A program made the translations under genes and the position numbers. 64,000 bases of DNA from Haplodiscus bocki (lineage: Eukaryota), in assembly GCA_965655095.1 (NCBI GenBank), contig OZ296649.1, positions 103,974,001-104,038,000 of the forward strand. Direction: 5' to 3'. The notes under the pieces are model-generated. The model did no database searches and was not told the DNA's origin. It worked only from the letters and a program-made list of their open reading frames with translations. Positions 131 to 24,799 of the stretch are shown here, one piece after another. Position 1 is the stretch's first letter. Every line of letters begins with the position of its first letter.

Positions 131-790
131 TTTATATTATATTCGCCAATTACGGAAAATTCCATAAAAGGAAAGACCAACCATAAAAGGTAAGACTAAC
201 CATAAAAGGAAATACCGCAAGAGCTGTCAATCATTCTCTTTCATCTTGAAAGCCGTACATATAACAAAGAATATCTAAATAAAGTGATGATACCGCTTGT
301 CTGTGAAAACCTTTTATGCGGAGCAAGTTCCCCTAATATGGTGACAGATTGTCTGAGAAAATTATTCAAGTGGGTTTACAATTCCAGACAGCTTGTCTGA
401 GCAAACTACTCAAGTGGAACAAATTCCCTCGATAAGGTAACTGCTTGTCTGATAAAATAACTCAAGTGGAACAATTTCCCCTGATAAGTAGACTGACTGT
501 CTGAATTATTTACTGAATTGGATCATTTTCCACGGCTACAGAGACAGCTTGTCTGAGAATTTTAATTTGATTATCTTGTTTATTCAGGTCTCAACTGTCA
601 ATCAAAAAAGACGTCCATATAAGGAACAAATATTGAATTTTGCGCAGAATGTGTAGTGTAGTGGTTAAAAGCTTCCGATTTGGGCAATTTTCAACATAAG
701 TCCTTGTAGTGAACCAATCAAACCTTTTAACCACTAAACCAAGGGTTCATATCTAACTATCTAAGGAGAAATAGTTGAATCTGATTGGTT
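131..790. promoter_or_regulatory. Divergent pPolB/accessory-gene promoter with five CArG boxes, CCAAT and TATA-like elements
   Basis: Perfect CC(A/T)6GG at 162-171, 181-190, 200-209 (three 19-bp tandem units), 332-341 and 615-624. CCAAT at 146-150 and ~714, ATTGG at ~784. TATA-like run at 131-142 oriented toward pPolB. Confidence 0.7.
295..565 (+). repeat. Degenerate ~52-bp tandem repeat (about 6 units, core GACAGCTTGTCTGAGAAAA...CAAGTGGAACAA)
   Basis: Recurrent (g)cttgtctga core. Inverted homolog in copy B at ~27370-27540 and an orphan copy at ~61710-61870. Confidence 0.8.
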
Positions 791-889
791 AAAATTATTA
801 CTATCATTGAAATTCGAAATCCGCATTAATTTCTACCACTAAACCTCCGATATTTTCATTTTGCAGAATTTACTGACTAAAGAAAGTTG

Positions 890-1516
890 ATGTGTGTCAA
901 AAAGCAAATTCCAAGTTTGTGCAAACTTTATTCATTTTACGAAGAAATACCAGAGGCGTTTTTGGACGGAACTGACGTAGATAGTTATTTTTACCACAAC
1001 ATTTTTGACATTTCCCAGTCCCAGCATCGAATAGTGCGAGTTAGCAGAGGCTCCAACAAAAAATCAATTGCAATCAAGTTGTTCCAGTTTTGCGATTTCA
1101 AGACACAGCAACGTTATATCCTCCAGGAAGAAGTGAATGTCTCCAAAAGAGGACTCACTTGCTTGGTCGACAATCTGCGCGATTTTCTCAAAACTTTTGA
1201 TCAGGCTAGCAAGTGCATACAGATTCCCCTACGGAGGCCCAAAGTTGAGATTGGATCTACAAAGTCAAAAGACAATCTCTTTGTTCATCAATATAACGAT
1301 AGCATTGAACATCCAAATAGACAAATTCGTTTATCATTCCGATTTGGAAACAACATTTCTTGTGTATTCTCCCTCAAAAAGTTTGAACTACACGGCAATC
1401 AATTTATTCTTACAGAAATTGTCAACCTTAACCATCGTGCAATTCACCTTCTCTACAAGAACCGATATTACGTTGCAAACAAGTGTGAAATAATTGAGAG
1501 CAATTACAATTTGTAG
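890..1516 (+). CDS. Accessory protein with two putative PC4/PUR-like ssDNA-binding repeats
   Basis: Intact ORF (ATG at 890) with two beta-rich-then-helix units (HRIVRVS...IAIKLFQF...VNVSKRGLTCLVDNL; RQIRLSF...FSLKKFE...VNLNHRAIHLL). Decayed homolog at 26415-27021. Fold is inferred. Confidence 0.6.
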   Translation: MCVKKQIPSLCKLYSFYEEIPEAFLDGTDVDSYFYHNIFDISQSQHRIVRVSRGSNKKSIAIKLFQFCDFKTQQRYILQEEVNVSKRGLTCLVDNLRDFLKTFDQASKCIQIPLRRPKVEIGSTKSKDNLFVHQYNDSIEHPNRQIRLSFRFGNNISCVFSLKKFELHGNQFILTEIVNLNHRAIHLLYKNRYYVANKCEIIESNYNL

Positions 1517-2412
1517 CGCATTCACCCCTGATTGTGGGTACAACAAGAGCACAATTATTCTCATTGGGGACGTTTATTGTCCAAATACAAAGTGTTCAGG
1601 TAGACTTTGCCTGCACAAAAAGACTTTTCAATCACCTGGCAGAAGCGATTATCAATGTCCGCAATGTGGGTCTGTGTGCCAGGTGCGCAATATTCCTTTT
1701 GAAGATCAGAGAAATTCCTTTTTCTTGTCGCTTGGTCAAGGGGTTTATATTTTTGAAGAGAACCCAAAATCAGTTCAAGATGTCGTTGGAGATGTCTATT
1801 GTCCTGGGAAGTATTGTCTCAACAGAGAGACATGCGAATTTGTTGGTGGTTATGTAACAACTCCGAGATCCATTTATGGTTGTGGAAAGTGTGGTGCTTG
1901 GTTGTTTGTTCACAAAGCTCCTTTTGCATTACAAGAGCACGTAAAGACAACAAAAACAGACAAAACACGTTTTTTCTTTGCCAGAAAAAGATGGACTTGG
2001 TACCCAACAAACAACTATTACTTAATGTTCCATTTCAATCAACCAAATATAGAAAGAAAGAGTTGTGTGTGGACAACAAAGTACGAGAGACTATCGGAGA
2101 TGTGTATTGTCCAACATGTAGAAATGAAAAGTGTGTTTACATTTCTACATTTCAACGAATAAAACGACTAGTTTTTACGACTGTAAAAAGTGCAAAGCCT
2201 GCTGCAACGTTTTGAATATTCCTTTTAAGGACCAAAAACCGACAATTATCTTGTTTGGTGGTGACGGTACCTATTGTTTTGCAAGAAAAACGAGTCGCGA
2301 CTACGAAAAAGAAAAACCATCTGCATTTTTGAAGAAATTTCTTCGCCAATCAAAATCAAGCACATCCGAACCTGAACCAAATAAGGTTAAAATGACTCCA
2401 AATATGGAATAA
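1494..2412 (+). pseudogene. Cys-rich zinc-ribbon repeat protein (three GDVYCP...CxxC...N/KxPF units), frameshifted
   Basis: IGDVYCP, VGDVYCP and IGDVYCP units are spread over the ORFs starting at 1494, 1799 and 2131, implying two frameshifts. Shorter homolog in copy B at ~25830-26420. Confidence 0.7.
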
Positions 2413-2432
2413 ACGTACCCGTTTCCTATTGG
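2346..2432 (+). promoter_or_regulatory. Putative promoter for the acidic-protein and EGF genes: two CArG boxes between CCAAT boxes
   Basis: CCAAATAAGG 2377-2386, CCAAATATGG 2398-2407, CCAAT 2346, ATTGG ~2428. Decayed counterpart CCATATGTGG at ~25823 in copy B. Confidence 0.6.
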
Positions 2433-2533
2433 CTGATGATTTGAGCGGCATATTCATTTTTCAAATCAATTTATTCAATTTCAATCTACAGTCAACCGCT
2501 CAAATTTAATCAGCGATATTACACAAAATCATC

Positions 2534-3117
2534 ATGATCTTCTCAGTTTCCAGCGACGGAATCCAGTGGACTCTCAATTCTGGTCCCGACTCTGTTACTA
2601 TTGCAGTATTCGATCTCGACCAAACTATCACAATCAGCTCACAAAAATACCCCTAGCTGCCTGGCAATTGCTGTTGTCTCAAAGGCAAGATTTCTCGAAT
2701 AATCATCTGTCACGAGTCCCAATCACTAAGAACCAAGAGGGAACAATGGATATGAGAGACGAAGTACTCTCCAGTGTGGGGGCTCGAGACCTGGACACTG
2801 GCAGCTATCAAGTCTCCGATCTCGAAGACATAGAAATCAACAGGGAAAATCTACAAACGGACATGGACGCGGTGTTCAGACCAGGCATAGACACCCCCTT
2901 TTCTCCAACAACATTTGAGGATTTATTGATGGGCGAGGGATCAGTTGAAAACCCCATTGTGTTGGATGATGAGAAAGACAAGGAGAATGCTCCTCCTCCT
3001 CCAACAACACACGAGTCTGTCAGACCCACCGAACCTCCCATGTTGCAGAGAAAACGAGCTTTTGGAGCACGAACGGAAAATGTACCCGATTATGTTTTTA
3101 GAAAATTGTTTCACTAA
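2534..3117 (+). pseudogene. Acidic, largely disordered accessory protein with KEN-like, SIM-like and RxL-like motifs (one frameshift near 2640)
   Basis: ATG 2534 gives MIFSVSSDGIQW, matching copy B MNFAVSNEGIQW. It shifts into the 2566 frame, which carries PIVLDD, DKENAPP and C-terminal RKLF. Confidence 0.65.
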
Positions 3118-3192
3118 GTATTACTGTGTTTGTGTTTTGATATAATTAACGTGTTTCATTTTATCATAACCTTTTTCAAAAACTAGTCAGAC

Positions 3193-3456
3193 ATGTGTGA
3201 GATAAAAGCAGTTGTAGTATCGTTCTCAATAAATTTACTAGTAGCAGCAAGTTTCTGCATATATCAAGCCCAAACTGAGAATAGAGTGGGACACCATAGC
3301 AAAATCAAAAGTCAAGGTCCTTGCGAAAACGAGTACAAGAAGTATTGTTTGAACGGTGGTGAGTGCTATTATCTAGTTGACGAAGATAATGTAGGCTGTT
3401 ACTGTAAACGGTTATATGGAGGAAAACGATGTGAAAAGTACATGTGGTGGGACTAG
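3193..3456 (+). CDS. Secreted EGF/TGF-alpha-like growth factor
   Basis: Hydrophobic N-terminal signal segment followed by a six-Cys EGF domain CENEYKKYCLNGGECYYLVDEDNVGCYCKRLYGGKRCE with EGFR-ligand spacing and the YxGxRC motif. Intact 87 aa. Confidence 0.92.
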   Translation: MCEIKAVVVSFSINLLVAASFCIYQAQTENRVGHHSKIKSQGPCENEYKKYCLNGGECYYLVDEDNVGCYCKRLYGGKRCEKYMWWD

Positions 3457-3494
3457 GTTAGAATTTAATATTCAAAAAGATGAAAAATTTTTAA

Positions 3495-3915
3495 TTTAAA
3501 ATCTAACACGTTGTAGAATTTTTCATTCAAAATCTGACGCGTTGTAAACTTTTTTTATCAAAATCTGACGCGTTGTAAAAATTTTGCTTAAAAATCTGAC
3601 GCGATGTATTTTTTCAATTGGAAATCTGACACGTAATGAAATCTTCAATTCAAAATCATGCTTCTTAAAAAAGCACAAAAAATGCAAAATATGTCGTTTT
3701 CACGGAGTAAAATGAACCGAAACGTGATTTTTGAGTGCAAACAATTTTTCGAATTCTGACAACACGAAAAAATTTTACTTCAAAATCTAACGCGTTGTAT
3801 TTTTTTTCAATCCAAAATCGGACGCGTTGTAAAACTTTTAAATCAAAATCTGATCCGTTGTATATTTTTTATTTTAAAATCTGACACGTTGTTTAAGTTT
3901 TTATCCGAAATCTGC
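3495..3915 (+). repeat. ~30-bp tandem repeat array (AAAATCTGACGCGTTGTAAAATTTT)
   Basis: About 10 degenerate units in two blocks around a unique spacer (~3660-3745). Inverted homolog at ~24340-24780. Confidence 0.9.
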
Positions 3916-3977
3916 TTTTCAAAGGGTATTTTCAGATTCTCGCTGATTTATTATCAAACTGCTACCAACATCAAAGA

Positions 3978-4175
3978 ATGACTTGTGGGATACTGACCGC
4001 TTGGTGTAAAAGATTTTTTTACGAGTGTGTGATATGTGTTTGTCTCACTTTTGCTACTATCTTTTTCTTTATTGCCTTCTTTATGGGGCTTGGGTTCTTG
4101 ATGGGTGTGATGACTATATCATTTGCGCTACCCATTGATTTATTCAAATCTCTTTGGCTTTCAGAAAATGGTTAG
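3978..4175 (+). CDS. Small hydrophobic membrane protein (1-2 TM)
   Basis: 65 aa, long hydrophobic stretch; positional homolog at 24094-24303 on the minus strand in copy B. Confidence 0.6.
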   Translation: MTCGILTAWCKRFFYECVICVCLTFATIFFFIAFFMGLGFLMGVMTISFALPIDLFKSLWLSENG

Positions 4176-4770
4176 TGTACAAAGATTTTAATTTAAAAGA
4201 CACTAAATTACTAGTATAATTACCATGACCATCTAGAAAACAATATACAATTTTTATCAGTTCTAATTCAAATTTTGTCTTTTTAACTTGTTCAATTCTG
4301 TCTGCAAACACGTATCCACTAGTTTGCGTCGATTTAGTCTTTCGGAAGGAGCTCAACAAATGTTTTTTGTACTTTTTCCTCAAGAGTCTCTTTTTCGCGA
4401 TGCTCGGCATTCTCTCCACTCGTCTGTTTTGCTGGTTGAAATGAACTGCCTTCTGCAAATAATCAAAGAGCTGTCCACTCTTGATAACAATTTTGCCATT
4501 GAAGCGGTACTTGAAAAGCGTAAACAGACAGTCCACGTGTTGGTAGTTGAAACAGAATGCATCCAGTTTCTGTAGCAACTCTTTAATGTTGCCTATTAGA
4601 ATAATGTGATATCTGCAATTGGGTAGGAAACACATCTTGTCATCGTGGCCAGCAATACAGTATTCTTTACTCACAATAAACTTTTCATAAGTGTTTGCAG
4701 AAATAAAGAGGCTGTTTTTTGAATAATTTGTATAAAAGCCAGGAATCACTTGTAACATTACAGCTGCCAT
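4144..4770 (-). CDS. Conserved accessory protein of unknown function (weak HUH-like motifs)
   Basis: Intact from MAAVMLQ (ATG 4770); homolog MAAVIIQ... at 23521 in copy B; basic NLS-like KKRLLRKKYKK. Confidence 0.75.
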   Translation of the reverse strand: MAAVMLQVIPGFYTNYSKNSLFISANTYEKFIVSKEYCIAGHDDKMCFLPNCRYHIILIGNIKELLQKLDAFCFNYQHVDCLFTLFKYRFNGKIVIKSGQLFDYLQKAVHFNQQNRRVERMPSIAKKRLLRKKYKKHLLSSFRKTKSTQTSGYVFADRIEQVKKTKFELELIKIVYCFLDGHGNYTSNLVSFKLKSLYTNHFLKAKEI

Positions 4771-4849
4771 CCGCTGAAGCACCTTTCTGTTGCGTCGTTT
4801 TCTGAACAAATGAATCTGAAAAACAAGATACTTTTACTTTTTGTACAAA

Positions 4850-5000
4850 CCTACCAAAAAAGGAAACAGGTTCCATATATGGAAATATCAAGTGACAATG
4901 CCCAAAAAAGGAAAGAATCTCCTTGTTTGGACCAGTCACGTGACAAGGATCAAAAGAGATACGGATATAAGTAACGAAATGCAGCTCAAAATCATTCTTT
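4850..5000. promoter_or_regulatory. Divergent promoter with three CArG boxes, a GTCACGTGAC E-box and TATA/Inr
   Basis: CCAAAAAAGG 4854-4863, CCATATATGG 4873-4882, CCAAAAAAGG 4902-4911, near-CArG 4921-4930, GTCACGTGAC 4935-4944, TATAA 4966-4970, TCATT ~4992. Copy B keeps CCTTTTTTGG (23411-23420) and GTCACGTGA sites. Confidence 0.7.
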
Positions 5001-5633: not shown

Positions 5634-5685
5634 AAACTAATTTCATCTGTTTACTCTTTATCATCATTTTTCTAATCGAGTCAAG

Positions 5686-6105
5686 ATGAGTTGGAACATT
5701 GGAGATAATAGAAACCTCTTTCTCAAGTTAAAATTAAATTTGGGACTTTATCTTGTTGTACTTACAACTCCAAAAACTTCTCCCAAAAAACTTACACTAA
5801 CTGTAGTTGAAATGCAACAATTGCCAGACATTGAAAAGACTGATTCCAAAGAAGAAATATCATGCCTAAACTCGACAAAATATAATGGTAGGAGAAAAGT
5901 ATGTGTGAACTTCCAGACGGATACAGACAAGTTGAATATTGTCGTGTACCGTTACCGAAACAATTTATACCTCAAAGATAATGAACTTGATGTGAAATTG
6001 TCAGAATACCACTCACTTCTGGCAAAACGAGTCTATTTCTTGAGCTACATTGACATATTCTACAAGCGGTGCATTGTACTGGATGAAACAACTGTTCATA
6101 ATTGA
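5686..6105 (+). CDS. PC4-like accessory protein
   Basis: Intact 139 aa, RKVCVNF...LNIVVYRY...LDVKLSEYHSLL pattern. Homolog at ~22185-22600. Confidence 0.55.
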   Translation: MSWNIGDNRNLFLKLKLNLGLYLVVLTTPKTSPKKLTLTVVEMQQLPDIEKTDSKEEISCLNSTKYNGRRKVCVNFQTDTDKLNIVVYRYRNNLYLKDNELDVKLSEYHSLLAKRVYFLSYIDIFYKRCIVLDETTVHN

Positions 6106-6122
6106 AACAAACTCTGTCAAGA

Positions 6123-6527
6123 ATGGATGTTCGCTTTCTAATGAGCATTTTTCGATTGTACCCGGGATTGAAATCGTCATTTGCCCACAATATTGTTCGC
6201 AAAAACTTTTTCCTAAGTGCATGTTTCTGTTGGGATTCAAGACTTTCTCTAGGTGAGATGGACCAAAAATTTAAATTTGGTGGAACCATTGGTTATGGGA
6301 ACTCGTACTTGGAATTATTATTTCGTCATTTCAAAATTTTTAGACTACACGCAATATTACATGATGCGGCTGGAGCAGTGCGGGCACATAGTGGTAAAGG
6401 ACCTGGTTACTGTTACATGACTGGACGAGGACCAAATTCATGTTTGCTTGGTCACGTGACTGGATTACTCTTTTGCATTTACGTAAAAATCTTTCTGCCC
6501 TCCATTTTCAATTCAGTTGATTTTTGA
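6123..6527 (+). CDS. Putative phospholipase A2-like protein (parvovirus-type motif variant)
   Basis: GGTIGYGNS...HAILHDAA resembles the YLGPGN...AAxxHD loop and catalytic dyad at similar spacing; GYGN and LHDAA are retained in copy B (~21950-22050). Confidence 0.5.
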   Translation: MDVRFLMSIFRLYPGLKSSFAHNIVRKNFFLSACFCWDSRLSLGEMDQKFKFGGTIGYGNSYLELLFRHFKIFRLHAILHDAAGAVRAHSGKGPGYCYMTGRGPNSCLLGHVTGLLFCIYVKIFLPSIFNSVDF

Positions 6528-6533
6528 AACAGT

Positions 6534-6990
6534 ATGTCTTTCATTGTACTAGATATTGAGCTAACTGAGAAAAACATAATTAAAGAACTGGGACTTTATA
6601 TTGATGGTTCTGTACAAGGATTTTCATTTTGTCCACCAAAGTCTTTTAAACCTAATAAACAGACGACATGGAACACAAGTCATCTACATGGAATTGCGTG
6701 GATTAGTGGAAAGTTGGATTATGGGAGGCTGTTTGCTGTCTTTTACGACATAAAAGTAATGAATGCAGAAGTGTTTGCTAAGGTGCTCGAGAAGTGTAGA
6801 CTTTTGACCAATCTTCTTGGACGAAATGTAGAAAATTTGGATGACTATGGTTGCCCGAGAATCCAAGATCTTGTCAAAACGGACAGTTCGTGGATCTGAT
6901 CTATTTACCCTTTCCTACACAAAACAAGGCTTCACTGTGCCGAGAGGAAAGCGAAGGTGTATGGAGACTGGGCTATGAAATCTTGTAAAT
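6534..6990 (+). pseudogene. DEDD-family 3'-5' exonuclease-like protein (premature stop at 6897-6899)
   Basis: FIVLDIE...IIKELG...HLHGIAW motifs. Reading through the TGA gives ...LHCAERKA, and copy B has Cys at the stop position (WICSSYP). Confidence 0.75.
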
Positions 6991-7089
6991 CTTGTACGTG
7001 TTTATTGTATTTGTCATTACTACTAACTTAATTCTTTCAACTCGACATGATTTCTTTATTCATTTTGAGAAATTGAGCTTACGAAACAG

Positions 7090-7350
7090 ATGACTGATCA
7101 AGAAGATAATATTAATCTAGGTAAAATTGTCTTTGAAGACAACAATCAAGAGAGAAAATCTTGCACCTGTTTGGGACAAACCTGTTCCAGATCTCTAATT
7201 GTGTTTCTGTCCCAACTTTTTCTCATTTTGTTAATCATCTTTGGTTGCTTTTGGAGAATTCACCTTTCAAAAACTTGTGACGAATCAACTGTTTGGGTTG
7301 GAATTTTGTGCAGTGCGGCAGGATACATTTTACTCTCGCCAAGATTATGA
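7090..7350 (+). CDS. Small two-TM viral membrane protein upstream of the ATPase
   Basis: Two hydrophobic helices, C-terminal SPRL; stop overlaps the ATPase ATG (ATGA at 7347-7350). Confidence 0.75.
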   Translation: MTDQEDNINLGKIVFEDNNQERKSCTCLGQTCSRSLIVFLSQLFLILLIIFGCFWRIHLSKTCDESTVWVGILCSAAGYILLSPRL

Positions 7351-8266
7351 ACAAGTTAATTTCTACAAAAAATCGAGTCTTTATTTCATTGGTCGGTCCT
7401 TCAGAGACTGGAAAATTGCAGCGTATTTACAATTGGCTAAAAATTGGAACATTTCAAGCAAAGTTTGACAAAATTTACTTTTTTATCAACATTCCCAACC
7501 TCTTTACGATGTTATGCAAAAGGAAATTGAAAGTCTCGAATTTGTTCGTGGAGTAAACTTTGAATTTATTGATTCGTTAAAAAATAACGGTACAAATTAT
7601 TTGTTAATTTTTGACGACTCCTGTGAAGAGATTTGCAATTCAAAGGCTTTTGATCACATTGCCACCGCTGGGAGACATCGGGGTCTGAGCACAATCTACA
7701 TTAAGCACAACCTTTTTCACCAGAGCAAACTAGGAAGAGACGTTGAGTTACAAAACACTCACATTGTTCTCTTCAAGTCTCCCTGTGACGTAATGCAAGC
7801 AACTACCCTTAGCACACAGTTGGATCTTGGTTCAGAACTAGTTGACTGGTATCAAGATACAACGTCTGTTCCCTTTGGTCATTTGTTTATTGATTTGTCA
7901 CCACGTACAGACGATCGATTACGTTACTGTACAAACACCGGATCCGTTCACTCAAAATTTTATATCCCGGAACGACTGAAACAGTCAAAATGTTTGGACA
8001 ATGAACACACAAAATCTCTCTACTCTCCAAGTGTTCCAATCATTTTCCCACAAATGCAAAAGTCTTTTCCTTCAGTCATGCCCAAAAGAGTTTATCCGGT
8101 TTCTCTGCGAATGCATAATAAATCTGCTCAAAGGAAACGTGCAAAGCATAAAAAGACATCACGTGGTAAAATTTCAAAGCGAGGTTCGACTACTGTCTCT
8201 AAAACGTACAACCTGGAAGCAAAGAAGGGACATTCTGGCGTCCGAAAGAGGATTACAGCTCATTAA
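7347..8266 (+). pseudogene. A32/FtsK-like genome packaging ATPase (frameshift near 7485)
   Basis: Walker A GPSETGK, Walker B LLIFDD, GRHRGLS and QN motifs split over two frames. Confidence 0.9.
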
Positions 8267-8303
8267 AGTTTTTACTCCTCCCGTCATTAACCATTTATCT
8301 TGA
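8001..8303 (+). CDS. Conserved Polinton small basic protein overlapping the ATPase 3' end
   Basis: FLCECIINLLKGNV...LSLKRTTWKQRRDILASERG pattern, typical of the ORF after the ATPase in this family; amphipathic C-terminus. Confidence 0.6.
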   Translation: MNTQNLSTLQVFQSFSHKCKSLFLQSCPKEFIRFLCECIINLLKGNVQSIKRHHVVKFQSEVRLLSLKRTTWKQRRDILASERGLQLIKVFTPPVINHLS

Positions 8304-8304
8304 T

Positions 8305-8715
8305 ATGGACCAGTTTGTCCTCATTCCTGCTTCTGTGTACAACAAAAGTTTGATTACTCAGTCAGTTACAAAGCAAGAACTTCCAAAGTATCAACCTTCA
8401 CAAAATCCCACGTAGCAAATTGATTCACTTAAAAAGGAGATAGACAAGAAATTATTTTCCAAAGCAGACTCTCTAGTAGACAAAATTTTGTCTTGTCCAC
8501 GTATCAAGCTCTCAACTTCACAAACTTTTTTTTTGGATGGTGTAGAAACTGGAATTTTCCTGTCGGACTTTGCTCAACAACTGCGTCGTAAGAACGCAGA
8601 CGTTCCAGAAATTTACTTTACTTTACTTGACGCCGCTGATATATCTCGGACTCTGATTCTGAATCAGAATGCCAAAGCTAAAGAGAGAGGAAACTGGGTC
8701 CCTTTCAAAATCTGA
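8305..8715 (+). pseudogene. Conserved Polinton ORF upstream of integrase (stop at 8413-8415)
   Basis: MDQFVLIPASVY...NPT*QIDSLKK...GNWVPFKI in a single frame; homolog at ~19630-20045. Confidence 0.75.
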
Positions 8716-9605
8716 ACGTCAGAAGCTGCAAAAGCTGTACACACAGGGTGGTGCTGCTTATGGATCTGTGCGCAACTTAGTGAAAGCTAGCAATCTGTCA
8801 GTATCAAAGGTGAGACAATTTTTGCATTCAAAACCTTCCTATACAAAATTTACTCCTGCCACACGTAAGTTCAAGCGCATGAAAGCATTTGCTAGATTCA
8901 AAAATGAAATTTGGTGTATGGATTTGGCATACGTTGATAAAGTAGCCAAAAATAATAACGGTGTAAAGTATCTTCTAGTTCGCCAAGACCTGTTTGATTG
9001 AACTGTAGATGCAAAAGGAATGAAAACAAAAGATTCCAAGGAAACTGTTCGTGCATTTTTGACTATGATTACAAAAAAAATCGACCCAAAAGATTTGGTT
9101 TGACAAGGGAACAGAATTTGCTGGAGAGTTTAAAAAATTATGCAAAGCTGAAGGAATACAATTTTACTCTACAATGAGTGAGACCAAAGCTGCATTTGCT
9201 GAACGTACAATACGATCCCTGAAAAATATACTTTACCGTTACATGGAAGACAATGGAGACAAGTACATTCACAAATTGACTCAATTCGTTATAACACTAA
9301 ATTCTCGAAGAAATTGCTTGATAGACTTGATACCAAAGAATGTAAAGAATTCCGACTTTTTGTCCATTCTGTACAGCAAACCACTACGAGAAATTAGGAA
9401 ACCCAAGTCTAAAGTTGGAGATAGAGTTCGCATCTCGAAGTATGACTCACCCTTCAGGAAGGGTTATAAGCCACAGTTTACAAAAGAGGTTTTCGAAATT
9501 GTTGCAATTTCTTCCAAAAAACCTCCAACATACACAATAAAGGATGAACAAGATGAGACTATCCGCGGTAAATTTTATCAGAAAGAGTTGATCAAAGTCA
9601 TTTAA
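8669..9605 (+). pseudogene. Retroviral-like (RVE) integrase (stop at 8999-9001, frameshift ~9080)
   Basis: WCMDL, DKGTEF and AERTIRSLK catalytic D-D-E segments; C-terminal GDRVRISK...FRKGY...YTIKD domain; no chromodomain follows. Confidence 0.93.
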
Positions 9606-9607
9606 CA

Positions 9608-10412
9608 ATGGAATCGTTTACGATAGAGTTGGTTTCAAATGCATCTGCGCAACTATTTCCAGACAACACATTGAGCTGTTTTACACATTTTTTGCCAGAG
9701 CAACTGAATCTGGATGGTCAATGGGAGGTTGCAATTTCAGAAATATCCTACCCATCAATGTACCAAAATGTTACGAAGGGAAAATTTATGTTTTTTGACA
9801 AGAAACTTTCAAAGTCATCAGAATTCTATTACCTGGAACCTGGTCTTTACCCTTCCATTATGGATATTATTGAAGCCATGAATATTCTCATTCAGGAAAG
9901 ACGCAATCACAGCGAAAACTGTATCAAAGTTAAAGTGTCTCGAAGAACGCAGAAAGTTGAGATTTACCTTGCAAATGAAGGATCCGGTCTTGCATTCTTT
10001 AGTACGGATCTGGGACACATTTTCGGAAGTAATGTTGGTAATGAATTTGGAGTAATGTTGAGAAGAAAAGGGCCTCACAAACCGGAATTTGCTTACGACA
10101 TTGTTCTTATACACTCTCTCATGACATACACCGACCTGATTGAGTACAATATCGTTGGCGACACAAAAGCTCCATTGCTGCGTTGCTTTCCTTTTATTTC
10201 GAAGCTTAAGTCTGGAGACATTATAACTACTGGACAGTACATGAACTATCAGACATTTAGCAACCTGCAATTCAGACCACTGCTCAAAAAATCTTTTCAT
10301 AGTATTCACATTGACTTGAGAGACACGAGCGGTGAAAAAAATACCTTTTGCATCTGTCGGTATCACTCGTCTTGTTTTGATGTTCAAAAAAGCCTCCAAC
10401 ATTCATTTCTAA
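9608..10412 (+). pseudogene. Minor capsid protein (penton), frameshift in the poly-A at ~10335-10341
   Basis: FTIELVSNAS..FPDNT...WEVAISEISYP N-terminus; YTDLIEYNIVGDTKAPLLR; SIHIDLRD C-terminal motif. Confidence 0.88.
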
Positions 10413-10430
10413 TCTAAAAGACGTTACAAG

Positions 10431-10796
10431 ATGGTTGCTTCAAGAGAAGTAGAGATTCCATACCATAGAGGTGTTGGTCGACAACGTGGACGGGGGTTCG
10501 GTGCTTTTGCACAAGGTATTGGAAGAACTGCAATTCCATTTTTGCGTAAATATATCGTCCCAGCTGCAAAACGCGTAGGTGCTGACTTGTTGTAATTTGC
10601 TGTGCCAGAAATTGCAGAGGTTGTTACTGGTAGAAAGAGTTTCAAGATAGCTGCAAAAAATGGGAGAAGACAGACTCTGAGAAAACCTTTGGGTAGTGGT
10701 AGCAGAAAAAGGACTGCGAGCAGAGTCATTCCAACAAAATCTGCAAAACAAATCAATCGGTCGCGAAGAGACATTTCTACAAACATTTCTCATTAA
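10431..10796 (+). pseudogene. Basic core/membrane-lytic-like protein, first copy (stop at 10593-10595)
   Basis: QRGRG-F adenain-type cleavage motif followed by an amphipathic helix FGAFAQGIGRTAIPFLRK; Arg/Lys-rich tail. Confidence 0.8.
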
Positions 10797-10798
10797 TC

Positions 10799-11184
10799 AT
10801 GTCGAGAAATTCTCGGTACCAACCTTTTGTGGCAGTTTCTGGAAATCTTGGAGGGAAAGTCCCAGTAGTTGACGATGTCTTGTCGTCCCATGAACAAGAG
10901 ATCTATCCTACAACCTCACTTGATGAAAACTGCATAGAGGTTGAATTTCAAACGGATTGAAACTATTACGTTGATTTGAGACAGTCTTTTTTGGCATTGA
11001 AGGTCAAATTTGTCAAAGGACGCGCTTACGATACATACGAGAGTAAAGAAAAGAAAAAGGAGCACAAAGATGAGTCTGTTGTTTTTACTGAAACAGGCGA
11101 TGACAACAGCGAAGAAGAGGAAATAGCTCGAGTTACCTATGTAAACAACATAATGCATTCGATAGTTTCAAATGTTGAAGTGTA
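10799..11184 (+). pseudogene. 5' fragment of major capsid protein, truncated by the duplication junction
   Basis: MSRNSRYQPFVAVSGNLGG...NVEV, colinear with the N-terminus of the 11987 ORF; in-frame TGA at ~10958. Confidence 0.88.
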
Positions 11185-11594
11185 GCACCGACTTAGGTCA
11201 CATTTTTGGTAACAATGTGGGAAACCAATTTGGGGTACTGATGAAAGGAGAAGGTCCTGATGAACCACAATTTTCTTACGACATTGTTCGTATCCATTCG
11301 CTAATGATTTACAGCGATCTAGTAGAGTACAACATTGTTGGAGACACAAAGGTTCCCTTGCTGCGATGCTTTCCCTTTATCTCAAAGCTAAAGGGAGGAG
11401 ACATTATAACAACTGGACAGTACATGAACTATCAGACATTCAGTAACCTACAGTTTAGACATCTGCTCAAAAGTTCTTTTCATAGTATACACATTGATCT
11501 GAGAGACACGTCTGGTGAAAAAATACCCATTGTGTCTGTCGGTATCACTCGGCTTGTTTTGATGTTTAGAAAGGTGTCCAGCATTCATTTTTAA
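11185..11594 (+). pseudogene. Duplicated 3' half of penton from a diverged subfamily
   Basis: STDLGHIFG...VSSIHF, paralogous to 10001-10412 with many synonymous differences. Confidence 0.88.
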
Positions 11595-11612
11595 CACATA
11601 CGATACTACAAG

Positions 11613-11984
11613 ATGGTTGCTTCAAGACAAGTAGAAATTCCATACTATAGAGCGGTTGGAAGACAAAGGGGAAGGGGATTTGGGGCTCTTGCGCAAGTTA
11701 TTGGGAGAACTGCAATTCCCTTTTTGCGTAAATATGTGGTCCCAGCGGCAAAACGCATAGGTGCTGACATGTTGGAGTTTGCTGTACCAGAGATTGGAGA
11801 GGTTTTTAGCCGTAGAAAATCTTTCAAGACGGCTGCAAAGAGTGTGGGAAAGAAAACTCTGAAAAAACAATTGGGGGAAGGTAGCCGCACAGGAGGTAGT
11901 AAACAGAGGAGAATCATTCCAACAAAAACTACTTAGCAATCCAGTCGGTCGCGAAGAGACATTTTTACAAACATTTCTCGTTGA
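11613..11984 (+). CDS. Basic core protein, second copy (early TAG at 11934-11936 trims ~16 aa)
   Basis: MVASRQVEIPYYRAVGRQRGRGFGALAQV..., paralog of 10431-10796. Confidence 0.8.
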
Positions 11985-11986
11985 TC

Positions 11987-13339
11987 ATGTCAAACAACAA
12001 TTTTCGGTACCAACCTTTTGTGGCAGTGTCTGGAAATCTTGGAGGGAAAGTCCCAATTGTTGACGATGTCCTGTCCTCACATGAACAAGAATATTATCCA
12101 ACTACCTCACTTGATGAAAACTGCATAGAGTTTGAATTTCAAACGGATCGGAACTATTACGTTGATTTGAGACAAACGTACTTGGCTTTGAAACTGAAAC
12201 TTGTCAAGGGTCGTGGTTACGAAACTTACAATACCAAAGAGGTAAAAAAGGAGCAGAAAGAAGAGGCAAAAGCAGAAGAGGAAGAGACGGCGGAAGATGA
12301 GGAGGCTCCAGTTCCTCTGATTACTCATGTAATCAACATATTGCACCCAATTTTTTCCAATGTTGAAGTGTACATCAACAATCAACAAATTTACAACTCC
12401 AATGGATTGTATGCGCACAAATCTTACATTTCAAACAACTTCAAGGGAGCCATCTCTGAATACAAGGGAGTTTTGCACTGCGAGGGGTACGACTATGAAG
12501 AAATTCCTGATGAAATTATGGAAGCGCCTTTGGCTGAACCTTTTTTCACAAGGAGAATGAAAATGCTTAGCAGACCTGATGGCTTCAAGTTGTATGGTAA
12601 ATTCGGGGTTGACTTTTTCTCCACTTCTGAATTGTTATACCCAAATATGAAAGTTAGGCTACGACTAATCAGAGCCAGACCTAATTTCTACATGATTAGC
12701 GACAACCCCAACGTTAGTCTTGGAATTGTTGATTGTTCACTTTACACTCGTCGTATTGCTCTCGAGGATGATTATCACAAGAAACGAATGGACATGCTTG
12801 CTTACACTCCTGTAGAGCTCAACTATTTGGAAAATCTTGCAAAGATTTTTATCATTCCTGCCAGACAAAAGCAGTTCATTCAAGAAAACATTTTCAACAA
12901 TGCTCCAGTTCGTCGGATTGCTATTGCAATGAATAAAAACTCTGCATTCACTGGATCTTATACTGAAAATCCTTTCTGGTATCAACAATTTGATCTCAGA
13001 CAAATTAGAAGACTCAGAGGAGGTCAGCCAATTGTAGACTTTGATGCTGCTGATAATTGTTGCCTTTATGTTACTACAATGAAAGCAATGAACTTTCAAG
13101 ATGATATCCCCTCAATTCCAATTGATAGTTTCAAAGACCACTATGTACTAGTGTTCGACTTGACTTCGATGCAGGATGCTACTGAAAACTGTCATTACCC
13201 AGAACTAGTTGGAGAACCATTGAGGCTGGAGCTAAACTTTACTTTTCCACTAGAACACGTTACTGAACTCATTGTATTGGGAGAACGAATGTCTTCAGTT
13301 GCAGTTGACAAGTTTGGTGTTGTTTGAAAAAACATCTAA
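11987..13339 (+). CDS. Double jelly-roll major capsid protein (hexon-like)
   Basis: ~450 aa; IEFEF...YVDL..TYL, FSNVEVYINN and VFDLT motifs. TGA at 13325-13327 removes only the last 4 codons (copy B ends VVGRNI). Confidence 0.92.
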
Positions 13340-13340
13340 A

Positions 13341-13733
13341 ATGGATAATGTTTCTCTCCAGCAGATAATCAACCGTATCCCATTACTCAAGTATCGGTAC
13401 CGTGGTTCTTTTCCCTCTGACTATGTTCCAACTCTTGAAAATGACACTTTTGCCATTATAAACACGCAACCCAGCAATATGCAGGGTGAGCATTGGATAA
13501 TGGTTGCAAACTCTCGTCAAGAATTGTATTTTGCAGACTCTCTTGGTCGTAAAAAGTACAGTTTCCTCAAGCAGCATTATGAACAGATGATACCAGAACC
13601 ACTACAGTCCCATCCCAGCGTTTGCGGTTTCTACACGATATATGCAGCTTTTCGTCTCTTCAAATTCCGACAAGAAGAAATTACAGGATTTCACGATGTT
13701 AATGTACTTTCATTCAAAAGTAATTACCTGTAA
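13341..13733 (+). CDS. Adenain-like cysteine maturation protease
   Basis: GEHW, FADSLG and LQSHPSVCG supply the His, Asp, Gln and Cys catalytic set. Intact. Confidence 0.93.
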   Translation: MDNVSLQQIINRIPLLKYRYRGSFPSDYVPTLENDTFAIINTQPSNMQGEHWIMVANSRQELYFADSLGRKKYSFLKQHYEQMIPEPLQSHPSVCGFYTIYAAFRLFKFRQEEITGFHDVNVLSFKSNYL

Positions 13734-13869: not shown

Positions 13870-14581
13870 GGCGTACGGTAGCACGCGTAATAAATCTTCC
13901 GCACGCGTAATAAACTATCCGCACGCGTAATAAATCTTCCGCACGCGTAATAATTTATCCGCACGCGTAATAAAATATGCACGCGCACAAAAATCTCTCT
14001 CGAAATAAGGAAGGATTCACCCGCGGAAAACCTGTTTTGCTTCAGGGATTCACCCGCGAAAAGATTGACATAATCTTAGGATTGGGGTGCGAAAAACCAT
14101 GTGAATCCCTATACTACTTAGGGGGGCTTTCCCTATCTTAATACAATAACCCGAACTACGCCCTATCTTAATACATTGACCCGAACTATACCCTATCATA
14201 ATACATTGACCCGAACTTAGCCCTATCTTAATACATTGACCCGAACTATACCCTATCTTAATACATTGACCCGAACTATACCCTATCTTAATACATTGAC
14301 CCGAATACACTCGGATTTTGGCACGTCAGCCAATCAGAATCGAGTATTACGTCACTCGAGTCGTTAGCCAATCAGAATCGGTCACTCGGCAGCCAATCAA
14401 CTTCAAATATTACGTAACACGAGACGTCAGCCAATCAGAATCGAGTATTACGTCACCCGAGAGCTCCCTGCTTGGGTGGAGGTCCCTTCTCGGCTCTCGG
14501 TTCGAGTCGGCTCGCTATAGCCTATCTTAATACATAGGGACCTCCGGCCCCCCCGTCTGATCTGCTCACTCTTCTACTACT
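13870..14581 (+). repeat. Right terminal inverted repeat of copy A, with internal tandem arrays
   Basis: 20-bp GCACGCGTAATAAATCTTCC x5 (13880-13985), 30-bp CCCTATCTTAATACATTGACCCGAACTATA x6 (14131-14310), AGCCAATCA x4 (14321-14460), terminal CTACTACT. The CCCTATCTTAATACATT motif is shared with both TIRs of copy B. Confidence 0.85.
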
Positions 14582-15695
14582 TTGAGGTCTCTCACGTAAT
14601 AAGATAACCTATAGCGATCCGAGCGCCGAATGGAGCCAAAAACCGGTGTCTTAGGGTGGAGTTCTCTTATCGGCTCCTTTGTTAATACGTGGGTCAATGT
14701 GATAAGATAGGGTTTTCCGGCACCGTGAGTTTATCGGCACCACCTGAAGATTTTACCTCAATGTAATAATATACTCCAGTGGATTAGGATAGAGTAAATT
14801 ACCTCAATGTATTAAGATAGGGTTCGCCCAAAGTTTTTCGGCAGTATGGAACTCTTCGGCGCTGTGAGACTTTTCGGCCATAGGAGACTTTTGGGCACTG
14901 TTAAATTTTTTGGCAACACCCGAAGATACTTCATCAATGTATTAATATACCCTAATGTATTAAGATAGGGTAAACGACCTCAAGGTATTAGGATAGGGTT
15001 CACACCAAGCTTTTCGGCACTGTCAGAATTTTTGGCACTGTGTGGTTTTCCGGCACTGTGAAACGATTAGACAATGTGAGACTTTTCGACACTGTGGGAC
15101 TTTTCGGCACTACCCCAAGATACTACCTCCTTGTATTAAGTTACCATAATGTATTAAGATAAGGTAAACTAACTCAATGGGTTGAGATAGGGTTCACCCC
15201 AAGGTTTTCTGCACTGTGAATGTAGGTGCCCCAAATAGCCCATTGTATTAAGATATCCCAATGTATTAAGTTACCCCAATGTATTAAGATACGGTAAGCT
15301 ACGTAGTTGTAGTAAGATAGGGTAAACGAACTCAATGTATAAAGATGGGGTTCATCCCAAAACTTTCAACATTGGGAGACTAGGTGCCCGAGATAGCCGA
15401 ATGTATAAAGATACCCCAATGTATTAAGGTATCCCTATTAATCTAGGGTACTCCATGATATTATGGGTTTTGCGTGTCGAAGAACGTTTTGTTCGAATGG
15501 GTGGTCCAGTAGTTTAGTGTGAGCACAAGAAGCGGTGGAGGAAAAAGAGGGGTCCTAAGTGGATTTGGACGTCGGAGGATGGAATCAGAAGTTTTTTAGG
15601 AGGCCGGCGGATGTTTTATAGCGGCTGCAGATGTTTTATAACGCCTGAAGATAATATATTACGGCTGCCGATACTTTATCAAGGTAACTGACATT
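14582..15695. repeat. Left TIR of copy B (outermost ~35 bp missing)
   Basis: Reverse-complement similarity to 32228-32910 (e.g. CGATCCGAGCGCCGAATGGAGCCAAAAACCGG vs CCGGTTTTAGGCTCAATTCGGCTCTTGGATCG); internal 20-bp CGGCACTGTGAGACTTTT and CAATGTATTAAGATAGGGT arrays. Confidence 0.85.
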
Positions 15696-15815
15696 TTTTG
15701 TCTGACTTTCTGTGATAAAATTGATTTAACGTTTAACAAAGGAAATTAAAGAGTATATAATTGAACAAATACTTCATAAAGACTTCACATTAACGCGGGA
15801 AAAGTTAAAAAAAAA

Positions 15816-16209
15816 TCACAAGTAATTGCTTAAACAAGAGAGTACTTTAAAATTTTGAACCCGAGTTATTTCTTCCTGACATAACTTGAAGAGATGAAAA
15901 GCTGCATAAATGATATTGAATCCGCAAACACTGGGGTGGGACTACAATAGTGCTGGCGTTGTATGCATGTAATGTCGTTGGAGAAAACGGTACAGTTTAC
16001 GTCGAAGAGAGTTTGTAAAAAACTTTTCATGACCAAAACTTTGCAATTGATATTCAATGCTCGCCCCGCATGTTTCTGGGCTGCGTGTTGATAATGGCAA
16101 AAGTGTCATTGTCAAGAGTGGAAACATAGTGAGAGGGAAATAAACCAAGGTACCGATACTTGAGTAGCGGGACACAATTGATTGTTCGTTGCAGAGAAGC
16201 AATATCCAC
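15816..16209 (-). pseudogene. Adenain protease remnant (copy B)
   Basis: VDIASLQRTINCVPLLKYRY...FAIINTQPRNMRGEH; multiple stops. Confidence 0.88.
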
Positions 16210-16210
16210 T

Positions 16211-17560
16211 TTATATATTCCTTCCGACAACAGCAAACTTGTCAACTGCAACCAAAGACGTTCGTTCCCCCAATACAATGAGTTCAGTAACGTGCTCTAG
16301 AAAAGTTAAGGTCAGCTCCAGTTTCAGTGATTCTTCAACTAGTTCTGGGATATGACAGTTTTCAATGGCAACTTGCATTGACATCAAATCAAACACTATT
16401 ACATAGTGGTTTTCGAAATTATCATTTGGAATAGCGGGGATATCACCTTAAAAAATCAATGCTTTTATTGTCGGAACAGGTAGGCGATAATTGTCAGGGG
16501 TATCGAAGTCTAGGACTGGCCGACCTCCTCTGAGTTTTCTATTTGTCTGAGGTGAAAATGCTGGTATCGGAATGGATTCTCAGTAGACGATCCAGTGAAA
16601 GCAGAGTTTTTTCTCAATGCAATGGCAATTCGATAATCTGGAGCATCGTTAAAATTATATTCTTGAGTTAACTGATTTTGTCTGGCAGCGATGATAAAGT
16701 TTTTCGCCAAAGTGTCCAAGTAGTTGTACTCCACGGGAGTATATGCAAGCATGTCCGTACTGTTCTTATGATAATCAACCTTGAAAGCAGTACGACGAGT
16801 GCTAAGCGGACAATCGACAATTCCAACACTATCGTTGAAGTTGTCATTAATCATGAAAAATTTTGGTTGGGCTCTGATTAGACATAGCCTAACTTTCATA
16901 TCTGGATTTGTCAATTCGGAGGTGGAGAAGAAGTCAACGCCCATTTTGCCATACAACATAAGGCCTCCGAATCAACTAAGCATTTCCATTCTCCTTGTAA
17001 AAAGGGGTTCAGAAAAAGATGCTTGCATATTCTAATCCAGAAATTGTTCCTAGCTGTAGCCCTCGCAATGCAAAACCCCTTTGTATTCAGAGAAAAGTCC
17101 CTGGAAGTTGTTGAAAATGCAAGACCTGTGCACATAGCGTCTATTTGAATTGTTAGTTTGGTGATTGTTGATGTACACCTGAACATTGGCAAAAACTGAG
17201 TGCAAAATGCTGATCACAAGAGTAACGACGGGAACTGGAGCTTCCTCCACCAGCACATGCTCCATTTTCTCATCGGGTTTTGCATCTCTTTTCTGCTCTC
17301 TTTTAACGTCCGTGCTGTTGTAAGTTTCTTAACCAAGATTTTCGACAAATTTCAGTTTAAAATCCAAATAAGACTGTCTCAAACCAAGGTATTAGTTCCG
17401 ATCCGTTTGAAATTCAAACGCTATCCAGTTTTCAAAATGTGATGTAGTAGATAAAACTTCTTAATCGTGGGACGACAAGACATCGTCAACTACTGGGAAC
17501 TTCCTTCCAAGTTTTCCAGATACTGGCACAAAACGTTGGCATCGAAAATTGTTTCAGATG
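16211..17560 (-). pseudogene. Major capsid protein remnant (copy B)
   Basis: Fragments LYGKMGVDFFSTSEL, FANVQVYINN, EHVTELIVLGER. Confidence 0.9.
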
Positions 17561-17914
17561 GTTAACGAGAAATGGTTGTATAAATGTCTCCACGTGACTG
17601 GCTTGTTTGGTAGCTCTTGTTGGAATGACTCTCTTTTTCCTACTACCACTACACAACTGTTTTCTCAATGATTGCTTTCCCACACTTTTTGCCCCGTTCT
17701 TGAAACTCTCGAAACCTCTTACAACCTCTGCAAATTAGTGCGCAGCAAAATCCATCAAATCAGCACCCACATACTTTGCAGCTGGGACGACATATTTAAG
17801 AAAAAAACGAATTTCTGTTCTCCTAATAACTTGCGAAAGTGCACCAAATCTTCTTCGACGCTGTCGACCAATACTTCTATAGTGGGAAACTTCTACTCGT
17901 CTTGAAGCAGCCAT
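17560..17914 (-). pseudogene. Basic core protein remnant (copy B)
   Basis: Starts MAASRRVEV; GKQSLRKQLCSGSRKKRVIPTR. Confidence 0.8.
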
Positions 17915-17932
17915 TTTGTGACTTGTTTGTTG

Positions 17933-18737
17933 TTAAAAATGAAAATTGGAAGCTTTTCTAAACATCAAATCAAGTCAAGTCATGCCCACAGATACAAAGG
18001 GTACTTTTTCACCAATCGTGCCTCTGAAGTCTATGTGAATACTATGAAAAGAATATTTGAGCAGCAGTCCAATTTTCTGCTTACTAAATATCTGATAATT
18101 CATATACTGTCCGGTATTTATAATATCCCCAGATTTTGGCTTGGAAAGAAAATGGAAGCAGTGCAGCAATGAAGCTTTTGTGTCGCCAACAATATTGTGC
18201 TCAATCAAGTCTGTGCATATCATGAGCGAATGTATTCGGACAATGTCAAAAGCAAACGCTGGCTTGTGTGGTCCTATTCCTCTCAACACCACTCCAAAGT
18301 TTTTGCCAACATTGCTTCGGAAAAATTTAACCCGAGTCCGTACTAAAGAATGCATGACACGATTTTTCATAGCAAGATGAATTTAAACTTTTTGGGTTCC
18401 TCAGGACACTTTGACTGCAATAGAACCTTCTGTGTGATGGTGTCTCGCTTGAATGAGCGTGTTGATAGGTTCCACAAAATCAGTAAACTAATGGTAGAGA
18501 CCGGGTTCCAGTTAATAAGACTCTGAAGGTTTTGCAAAGTTTGTGTCCAAGAACCTAGTTTTTCCCTCAGTTGGATTTTGGTACATTCTAAAGTAAAGCA
18601 ATTCCGAAAATGCAAGCTCCCATTGCCAATTTAGATTCGATTGTTCCGACGAAACAAATTGTAAAAGAACTGAGTGTATCGTCCGGAAATAAATTTGCAG
18701 ACGCATCAAAGACCAACTCTATTTTAAACGAGTGCAG
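17933..18737 (-). pseudogene. Penton remnant (copy B)
   Basis: WELAFSE, DIVRIHSLMICTDLIEHNIVGDTK, SIHIDFRG fragments. Confidence 0.87.
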
Positions 18738-18739
18738 CG

Positions 18740-19675: not shown

Positions 19676-20079
19676 TTTGAGTCAAAACCAGAATTGGAGA
19701 TATTCAAGCAGCGTCAAGTAAAGTAAAGTAAATGTCGTGAACGTCTGCGGTTTTTTGACGCAGTTTTTGAGCAAGATCCGACGACAAAACTCCATTTTCT
19801 ACACAATCTAATATTCAAGTCTGCGAATTTGAGAACTCGATACGTAGACAAGACAATTTTTTGTCAAAAAAAAGTCTGCCTTGGAAACAAATTTTTATTA
19901 ATTTCTTTTTTTGAAGAGTCAATTCGGTACTTGAGGTTTTGGTCAGCTGGATACTTTGGAAATTGGTGCTTCGTAAGTGACCGAGTATTCCAACTCTTGT
20001 TGTACACAGTATCTGGGACGAGAACAAACGGTACTTTGTCAGGACGATTGACCAATGACGGGAGGAGTAACGACTTTCA

Positions 20080-21249: not shown

Positions 21250-21352
21250 CTAGTTTTTACGCTCAATGTCTCAATTTTCAGTATTGAAAAAAAAACAAAC
21301 AATTTGAATAATTTTTACGTAGACACAAACAAGACATAATACAATACAAATT

Positions 21353-24780: not shown

Positions 24781-24799
24781 GAAAAAAACGTCTTATCTG

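Follow-up and report, generated by a model that had tools for sequence, protein, structure and literature searches.

What does a dense group of perfect CArG boxes, CC(A/T)6GG, do in the genome of Haplodiscus bocki, and which protein would read it? The question is raised by a stretch of 64,000 nucleotides (assembly GCA_965655095.1, contig OZ296649.1, positions 103,974,001 to 104,038,000 of the forward strand; hereafter the window), which contains 18 such boxes, 12 of them within positions 162-4911. This region is the non-structural left half of a Polinton/Maverick, designated element A. The boxes were found to be enriched, placed mainly in three gaps between reading frames, conserved among copies of the element and yet subject to turnover, in a host genome that possesses serum response factor (SRF), and they are probably sites at which host SRF activates the replication side of the element.

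The sequence-only reading had listed eleven boxes in the region, and all of these were found at their coordinates; the tally was real but understated, as a twelfth box at 1870 had been overlooked. Its flat assumption of ∼33% GC did not hold, the region having 33-40% GC per kb. Enrichment over a shuffled background had been set in advance as a test and was observed: 1000 dinucleotide shuffles of 162-4911 gave a mean of 0.30 boxes and a maximum of 3 against the 12 observed, and Markov models of order 1-5 gave an expectation of 0.30-0.33. The enrichment is specific to the CC..GG order and the 6-bp A/T core: the 15 other C/G-pair combinations flanking a core of six A/T positions occurred 0-1 times each in the region, and a comparison of core lengths 3-10 showed enrichment at 6 only (12 boxes; length 4 gave 1). 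The remaining 59 kb of the window held 6 boxes where 4.0 were expected. The excess was also evident against the host genome, the region lying ∼26-fold above the genome rate of one box per 10.5 kb. Across the 1.50 Gb genome, 143,703 CArG boxes were counted and 104,815 occurrences of the reversed control pattern, a genome-wide excess of roughly 39,000 boxes, i.e., 27% of all.

Polintons/Mavericks are 13-25 kb long, are bounded by terminal inverted repeats of 100-1500 bp and produce a target duplication of 5-8 bp (PMC10748475; papers are cited here by PubMed Central number). The size, terminal repeats and target duplication of element A all fall within these ranges, as its terminal inverted repeats (669 bp, 96.9% identical) lie ∼19.7 kb apart, its AGTAGTAG ends have the form AG...CT, the right repeat ending in ...CTACTACT, and the 6-bp target duplication shows one mismatch. 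A protein-primed family B DNA polymerase (pPolB) is predicted from a minus-strand frame that begins just left of window position 1, carries N-terminal C2H2 fingers and is in pieces in the window's own copy. The homologous frame in another copy (70% DNA identity) is open over 1335 amino acids and contains the family B polymerase motifs FDFE, DASQLY, KxxxNxxYG and DTDS, as well as a weak VSR match (VSR-like insertion); Pfam gave no PolB match. A retroviral-type integrase, a packaging ATPase and a cysteine protease are likewise predicted: a homologous copy (L196) gave an rve integrase match (E 1.7e-9) and a Pox_A32 ATPase match (E 4e-5), both above the cut-off, and the protease of the window matched Peptidase_C5 below it (E 0.005). 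The 445-amino-acid open reading frame (ORF) at the position expected for a double jelly-roll major capsid protein, ahead of the protease, had no Pfam or PHROG match.

Five boxes of element A are located in gap P1, three in P2 (2221-2398), three in P3 and one (1870) in a Cys-rich reading frame; its 8.9-kb capsid/integrase half contains none. The gaps precede pPolB/ORF890 (P1), ORF2746 (P2) and ORF5055 (P3). In full elements, 5-10 kb separate the boxes from the termini, and TATA/CCAAT motifs and start codons follow shortly downstream of them. The features concerned are as follows:

162-4911: twelve CArG boxes, starting at 162, 181, 200, 332, 615, 1870, 2221, 2377, 2398, 4854, 4873 and 4902
1-889, no strand: P1, divergent gap between the pPolB frame and ORF890, with boxes 162, 181, 200, 332 and 615
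162-216, plus strand: three CCATAAAAGG boxes with a 19-bp period, a tandem repeat
224-233, minus strand: Pbx-Prep/Meis decamer (TGATTGACAG on the minus strand), with a second copy at 595-604, each adjoining a CArG box
340-560, plus strand: 52-bp repeat region with TCAAGTG, GTCTG and GATAAG motifs, modestly enriched in old copies
615-624, plus strand: single CArG box likened to c-fos; box conserved, flank not
714-788, no strand: two CCAAT boxes in P1 (714 forward, 782 reverse), from a motif scan
1494-2162: Cys-rich reading frame containing box 1870
1870-1879, plus strand: box 1870, with a weak conservation contrast in old copies (0.88 vs 0.81)
2221-2435, plus strand: P2, which lies upstream of the frame 2440-3117 and has box 2221, the pair 2377/2398 at a 21-bp period and, at 2426, a CCAAT in reverse orientation
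4854-5000, plus strand: P3, divergent gap between ORF4144-4833 and ORF5055, with boxes 4854, 4873 and 4902, TCAAGTG at 4888, an E-box at 4937 and TATAAG at 4966

The trio at 162, 181 and 200 is a single 19-bp tandem repeat, as had been proposed, and the accompanying argument that repetition alone does not explain the boxes also stood, as the three gaps differ in repeat units and cores. In 11 stretches from the genome, 19 bp was the commonest neighbour spacing (15 of the 32 spacings of at most 70 bp).

For the analysis of conservation, the old and the window-lineage copies were retrieved using coding DNA only and not the box motif. Copy B is a second Polinton in the window; in thirty old copies related to it, which are 63-75% identical to the window in aligned segments, 107 kb of sequence gave 44 boxes and 3 reversed controls. 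These boxes recur at equivalent offsets, such retention extending down to ∼66% identity, and 18 of the 30 copies possess a P1 box. Copy B itself retains one perfect box, as had been claimed; this box (23411) corresponds to 4902. In the window's own lineage, thirty copies contained 212 boxes against 24 reversed controls, the latter amounting in essence to a single inherited site. A further twenty copies, which belong to younger lineages and were reached through a locus first picked up by the motif, had 5-9 boxes each, some of them at new places in P1 (-204/-161). In a further test set in advance, with one representative per 85% cluster, the CC/GG positions of promoter boxes were more conserved (152/184, 83%) than flanking C/G (186/375, 50%), and higher in 22 of the 24 representatives that aligned; for boxes inside reading frames the corresponding values were 302/380 and 659/939. 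Pairwise comparison with the window copy gave CC/GG and flanking C/G identities of 81% vs 64% for old copies and 97% vs 80% for younger lineages. Individually, box 615 showed CC/GG identity of 0.90 against 0.45 for flanking C/G (18 old copies) and box 2398 showed 0.77 against 0.35 (old copies), the contrast at box 2221 being weak. Core changes in box 615 remained A/T in 18/24 cases, as compared to 15/48 in the flanks.

Cores, repeat units and positions turn over while the CC/GG pairs are kept. Lineages differ in the repeat units of their clusters, P3 elsewhere consisting of a 40-bp unit in which a CArG box is combined with an E-box-like site, and a one-mismatch fourth box in P3 of element A (4921) is perfect in 22/29 close copies. 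The younger Polinton lineages L112-L130 comprise near-identical copies (up to 99.7% over 1.3 kb) with mosaic promoters; in two of them a P1 like that of the window is combined with another coding lineage, and the lineages may thus have recombined. The full decamer, identified after PMC6023610, was present in P1 of 29/29, 19/20 and 10/30 copies in the three copy sets, and occurred 27 times in old copies against 0.5 in shuffles. AP-1, CRE, MEF2 and E-box motifs were not enriched in P1.

The consensus of the SRF-bound CArG element, CC(A/T)6GG, is the motif that is enriched and conserved here, and an SRF-type MADS protein is encoded in the same genome. The SRF ortholog (on C2, two exons) gave SRF matches (E 3e-10 and 9e-13) ahead of Mcm1 and MEF2, and keeps the KKTRGRVKI extension and a lysine common to SRF and Mcm1 but not MEF2. 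A second host MADS gene (L048) is present. The MEF2 site CTA(A/T)4TAG was absent from the P1 regions of all 80 copies (0/30, 0/30 and 0/20). [quoted passage not shown] GACGTCCATATAAGGAAC (610-627) and CGGAA (153-157) are indeed present; however, a c-fos-type composite was not supported across lineages. An ETS core was found beside the first box in 17/29 window-lineage copies but in 2/20, 1/18 and 0/3 elsewhere, with a background of 164/1700 windows (∼10%), in a test covering the 20 bp upstream of the first P1 box only. TCF sites are short and flexible (PMC516031), and hence this test is not exhaustive. Beyond the box itself, the likeness of box 615 to c-fos was not supported either, as its flank shows poor conservation (a C/G identity of 0.45 among old copies). 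A resemblance to c-fos/ETS is thus confined to one lineage and is not supported as a feature of the family.

It is probable that the clusters are bound by host SRF, which together with TALE, NF-Y and E-box factors turns on the genes of the replication side, the capsid and integrase genes being expressed by another route. The boxes would then be host SRF sites in three RNA polymerase II promoters of the Polinton/Maverick. SRF dimers would sit on closely spaced boxes (19-21 bp, 28-49 bp), joined by Pbx-Prep/Meis, NF-Y and E-box factors, and an active host SRF pathway would turn on pPolB, ORF890, ORF2746 and the PC4/PUR-like ORF5055; the capsid and integrase genes would be driven otherwise, or read through from P3. 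The heritable amplification of the family to thousands of copies implies that it is active in embryonic cells, stem cells or the germ line. The identity of the binder as SRF, the promoter nature of the gaps, an activating effect and a division of expression into early and late are what we infer. More than one exact CArG box was found in 15 of 6,875 mammalian promoters (PMC516031), as compared to three regions with multiple exact boxes in the Polinton.

Placement speaks for this explanation: over six elements, 53 boxes were counted in 29.7 kb of left halves and none in the 47.2 kb that make up the structural halves, as against 2.8 and 4.5 expected at the genome rate. Several observations weigh against it. 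Four of the six elements originate from motif hits, so that the count of 53 is biased upward, the structural zero being unaffected. The structural side is not always empty, as one box lies inside the ORF 5641-6105 in 24/30 close copies. A perfect P1 box is lacking in 12/30 old copies; the 28 clusters are reduced to 6 if the threshold is set at 80%, and of the first members of these, 3 have a P1 box; and the copies share ancestry, so that box counts are not independent. Boxes 1870, the 2043-equivalent, 2221 and 2377 overlap reading frames and show a weaker conservation contrast; box 1870 may be partly a coding by-product. The core that ranks second in frequency (10/67 boxes) is all-A, a sequence less than optimal for SRF. 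An MRTF/myocardin gene was not found in an insensitive exon-by-exon RPEL search. The RPEL search gave two matches at one locus, an exon of which reads like Phactr; being made exon by exon, it does not show MRTF to be absent.

The boxes are not confined to full elements. Boxes paired 7-12 bp apart number 6,230 genome-wide against 70 for the reversed pattern, and the first 15 paired-box loci returned (12 distinct places) all match the Polinton element. Short non-autonomous derivatives (L201-L204), some in 4.6-kb tandem units, have P1 fused to P3 and keep 2-4 boxes along with the terminal repeats and the 31-bp repeat arrays of the element. Behind the fused cluster they have TATA boxes and an ORF of 120-210 amino acids, which is absent from the parent element and without a Pfam match. 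The window contains one such fragment:

61615-62212, plus strand: derivative fragment, 88% identical to L203, with P1 fused to P3 and boxes 61740, 61940 and 61968 ahead of TATA boxes

At two other loci (L035 1449-1641 and L038 1500-1641), an inverted P1-like CArG cluster lies between the end of the protease gene and the terminal repeat.

Among the alternatives, a muscle/heart-type code of SRF with NK2, GATA and Smad factors survives best and is a real though minor possibility; it would imply somatic muscle or gut tropism in place of activation by growth signals or in the embryo. P1 and P3 of element A contain TCAAGTG four times, GTCTG seven times and GATAAG twice, the first two being NK2-like and Smad-like motifs, and the boxes are clustered without a conserved ETS site. 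However, in P1 of old copies GATAAG is not enriched (13 vs 9.3) and TYAAGTG only mildly so (21 vs 9.4, shuffle maximum 18), the coding control is likewise rich in GTCTG, a single 52-bp repeat contributes much of the signal, and no MRTF was found in the insensitive search described above. SRF is known to cooperate with GATA4 and Nkx2-5 (PMC12478115). Such a code is a tissue sub-case of the SRF explanation and not an alternative to SRF binding.

It is unlikely that the boxes serve as cis-sites for replication, packaging or nuclear retention, bound by a host MADS protein or an element-encoded protein, in place of a role in transcription. Yeast Mcm1 at origins and NFI/Oct-1 at adenovirus ends are precedents for such sites, the short derivatives keep boxes together with terminal repeats and 31-bp arrays, the P1-like cluster adjoins the terminal repeat in L035 and L038, and the C2H2 fingers of the pPolB frame would offer an element-encoded binder. 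However, the distance of the boxes from the termini of full elements and their position just upstream of TATA/CCAAT motifs and start codons, as well as the new ORF behind the fused cluster of a derivative, argue for transcription, and a palindrome with a fixed 6-bp A/T core is the signature of a MADS protein and not of a zinc finger. Still less probable is that SRF or another host MADS protein, such as that of the second MADS gene, binds the boxes to repress or silence the element: this is compatible with the sequence, but purely repressive sites would be lost along master lineages, whereas these are kept and gained, unless latency is selected. A neutral origin, with chance boxes multiplied by tandem duplication, inherited by all copies and joined by codon-driven matches, fits the tandem trio, the shared ancestry, the weak contrast of in-frame boxes (1870 and 2221 may be neutral) and the one reversed control site likewise inherited by 24/30 close copies, but is highly improbable and for the promoter boxes largely refuted by the CC/GG contrast among cluster representatives. 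Repeat units and cores differ among the three gaps, the CC/GG pairs persist between diverging spacers, new boxes arise at non-homologous places and other motif permutations are not enriched.

Host SRF as activator of the replication side raises a further question, as the same half of the element carries a growth-factor-like gene:

3193-3456, plus strand: 87-amino-acid ORF with a hydrophobic N-terminus and one six-cysteine EGF domain of the EGFR/ErbB-ligand type, from PDB matches

This ORF is predicted to encode a conserved, secreted-type EGFR-ligand-like protein consisting of a leader and a single EGF domain of 45 residues. Its best solved relatives are EGF (the best), TGF-alpha, epiregulin, betacellulin and neuregulin (E 4e-6 to 6e-5), and the top 26 matches in the PDB, with E up to 0.008, comprise ligands of the EGF family and one EGF-like peptide, as compared to E 0.3 or worse for Notch and factor IX; Pfam gave no EGF match. 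Genome-wide, 8,081 candidates were obtained, of which 150 were scored (E <1e-42). The six cysteines are kept in 4/4 other lineages (60-84% identity), and the ratio of non-synonymous to synonymous substitution rates in five of six pairs was 0.31-0.57 for the EGF domain and 0.30-0.51 for the whole ORF, the closest pair giving 0.98. The nearest upstream CArG box is ∼790 bp away, and hence the ORF need not itself be SRF-driven. The host genome gave four GF_recep_IV (receptor-domain-IV) matches, which are candidates for EGFR.

EGF signalling to SRF is established in vertebrates, and a growth-factor feedback loop through the host is possible. In its full form the proposal is doubtful: the Polinton would secrete an EGFR-type ligand, SRF would become active in the same or neighbouring cells and the replication promoters would fire, and the spread of the family would have added ∼39,000 CArG boxes (27%) and nearly all the tightly paired ones, enough to compete for SRF or to rewire the control of host genes for growth, wounds or muscle. 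As ETS sites are not conserved, an ERK-TCF route for such a loop is made somewhat less likely. Poxvirus growth factors are also virus-encoded, secreted EGF-family ligands, and poxviruses use their own polymerase in the cytoplasm; in the Polinton, by contrast, the putative promoters around the ligand gene belong to the same element and are of the host-SRF type, an arrangement that would permit feedback.

The other features of element A and its neighbour are the following:

890-1516, plus strand: ORF890, 208 amino acids, conserved across lineages
3484-3914, plus strand: two arrays of a 31-bp repeat with AAATCTGACGCGTTGT as its core, directly behind the EGF gene and also amplified in short derivatives
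4144-4833, minus strand: ORF4144, ∼206-229 amino acids, an open reading frame divergent from P3
5055-5633, plus strand: ORF5055, 192 amino acids, predicted tandem PC4/PUR-like fold (single-stranded DNA-binding type) from a low-confidence model
5641-13733, plus strand: structural/integration module, without a perfect box in element A; ATPase at ∼7300-8266, fragmented integrase at 8663-9605, putative capsid genes as far as 13327 and protease up to 13733
13913-14581, no strand: right terminal inverted repeat of element A, its left partner lying 4.4-5.1 kb upstream of the window
∼14615-32885, minus strand: copy B, a Polinton that is older and decayed (65-75% identity) and whose one perfect box is 23411

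ORF890 had no usable Atlas match, and its candidacy as a paralog of ORF5055 was rejected, as BLASTP showed no similarity. ORF4144 gave a sub-threshold RAG1 Pfam match (E 0.001, below the cut-off) and no match in an Atlas look-up. The model of ORF5055 (pLDDT 58, pTM 0.35) suggests, at low confidence, a tandem PC4/PUR-like domain, with PURA at E 6e-4 and Z-scores of 6.9 to Pur-alpha and 6.2 to T5 PC4. The 31-bp arrays, which recur in derivatives (L201 596-1127 and 3450-4147; L203 6641-7230), are a candidate packaging, replication or cell-cycle element. An ORF at 6102-6527 with an LHAILHDA motif and no Pfam match resembles the PLA2-like genes described for adintoviruses. An internal duplication (9572-11184 and 11166-12372, 78% identical), also present in other copies of the element, covers part of the minor-capsid-like, small basic and major-capsid-like genes. 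The family is present in thousands of genomic copies: 1 kb of element A gave 5,915 first-look candidates in the 1.5-Gb genome, 40 of which were scored at 93-100%. Protein searches returned 3502 and 1208 relatives, without context; no relatives of ORF890 were found in viral contigs, and the two 1-kb metagenome contigs matching the capsid-like ORF are too short for promoter content. Elsewhere in the window, several diverged copies of intronless Ras-family GTPase frames were noted (57042-57701, 58981-59595 and ∼48908-49828; Pfam Ras E 3e-28 and 2e-21), as was a long 9-bp repeat (CAAAGAATG, ∼120 copies) at 38800-40100 with minus-strand open frames of a low-complexity, coding-like character.

Element A resembles the known Polintons/Mavericks (adintovirus-like) that have a pPolB2 with a VSR insertion (PMC10748475, PMC8502044) in its length of ∼19.7 kb, 0.67-kb terminal repeats, AG...CT ends and 6-bp duplication, and would share with them pPolB, the rve integrase, the A32-type ATPase and the adenain-like protease. 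In contrast to described Polintons, the present family has conserved promoter motifs and, likewise conserved, a gene for an EGFR-ligand-like protein. The word "promoter" does not occur in the available text of the Polinton papers PMC8502044, PMC11131425 and PMC10748475, nor "EGF" in that of PMC8502044 and PMC11131425; no paper joining Polintons with SRF, CArG or EGF was found among the open-access matches listed, and the open-access literature searched named no host transcription factor for Polintons. SRF regulates the MT2 long terminal repeats (LTRs) of MERVL, likewise an endogenous mobile element with SRF motifs that vary by subfamily, at zygotic genome activation, a precedent for the activation of transposable elements in early embryos (PMC11960700). 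However, MERVL has a retroviral LTR with one SRF motif in each, whereas the Polinton is DNA virus-like and has 8-12 boxes in three internal, putative promoters. Human cytomegalovirus, with SRF/ELK-1 sites in its major immediate-early enhancer (PMC7690695), and HTLV-1, with a vCArG/vSRE in its LTR (PMC3510432), similarly recruit host SRF to viral promoters for the first wave of transcription; theirs are CArG and ETS composites in one control region, whereas in the Polinton ETS is not conserved and the boxes are tightly paired and distributed over several candidate promoters. The two perfect decamers and two CCAAT boxes of P1 are similar to the TALE DECA and NF-Y elements of blastula-stage zebrafish, but the decamer-to-CCAAT distance is >100 bp in P1 as compared to ∼20 bp in zebrafish, and the nearest neighbour of the P1 decamers is a CArG box (PMC6023610). 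The capture of a host factor by a mobile element is a known phenomenon, which would be new for Polintons and unusual in its density.

Polintons are known almost only from sequence. For the activation of animal Polintons the present analysis offers a specific candidate, i.e., SRF at three defined putative promoters, and the order of the genes hints at an early/late programme. That a mobile element accounts for about one in four of the genome's CArG boxes bears on host SRF networks and on the reading of SRF chromatin immunoprecipitation, and an EGF-like gene carried in thousands of copies bears on those networks as well.

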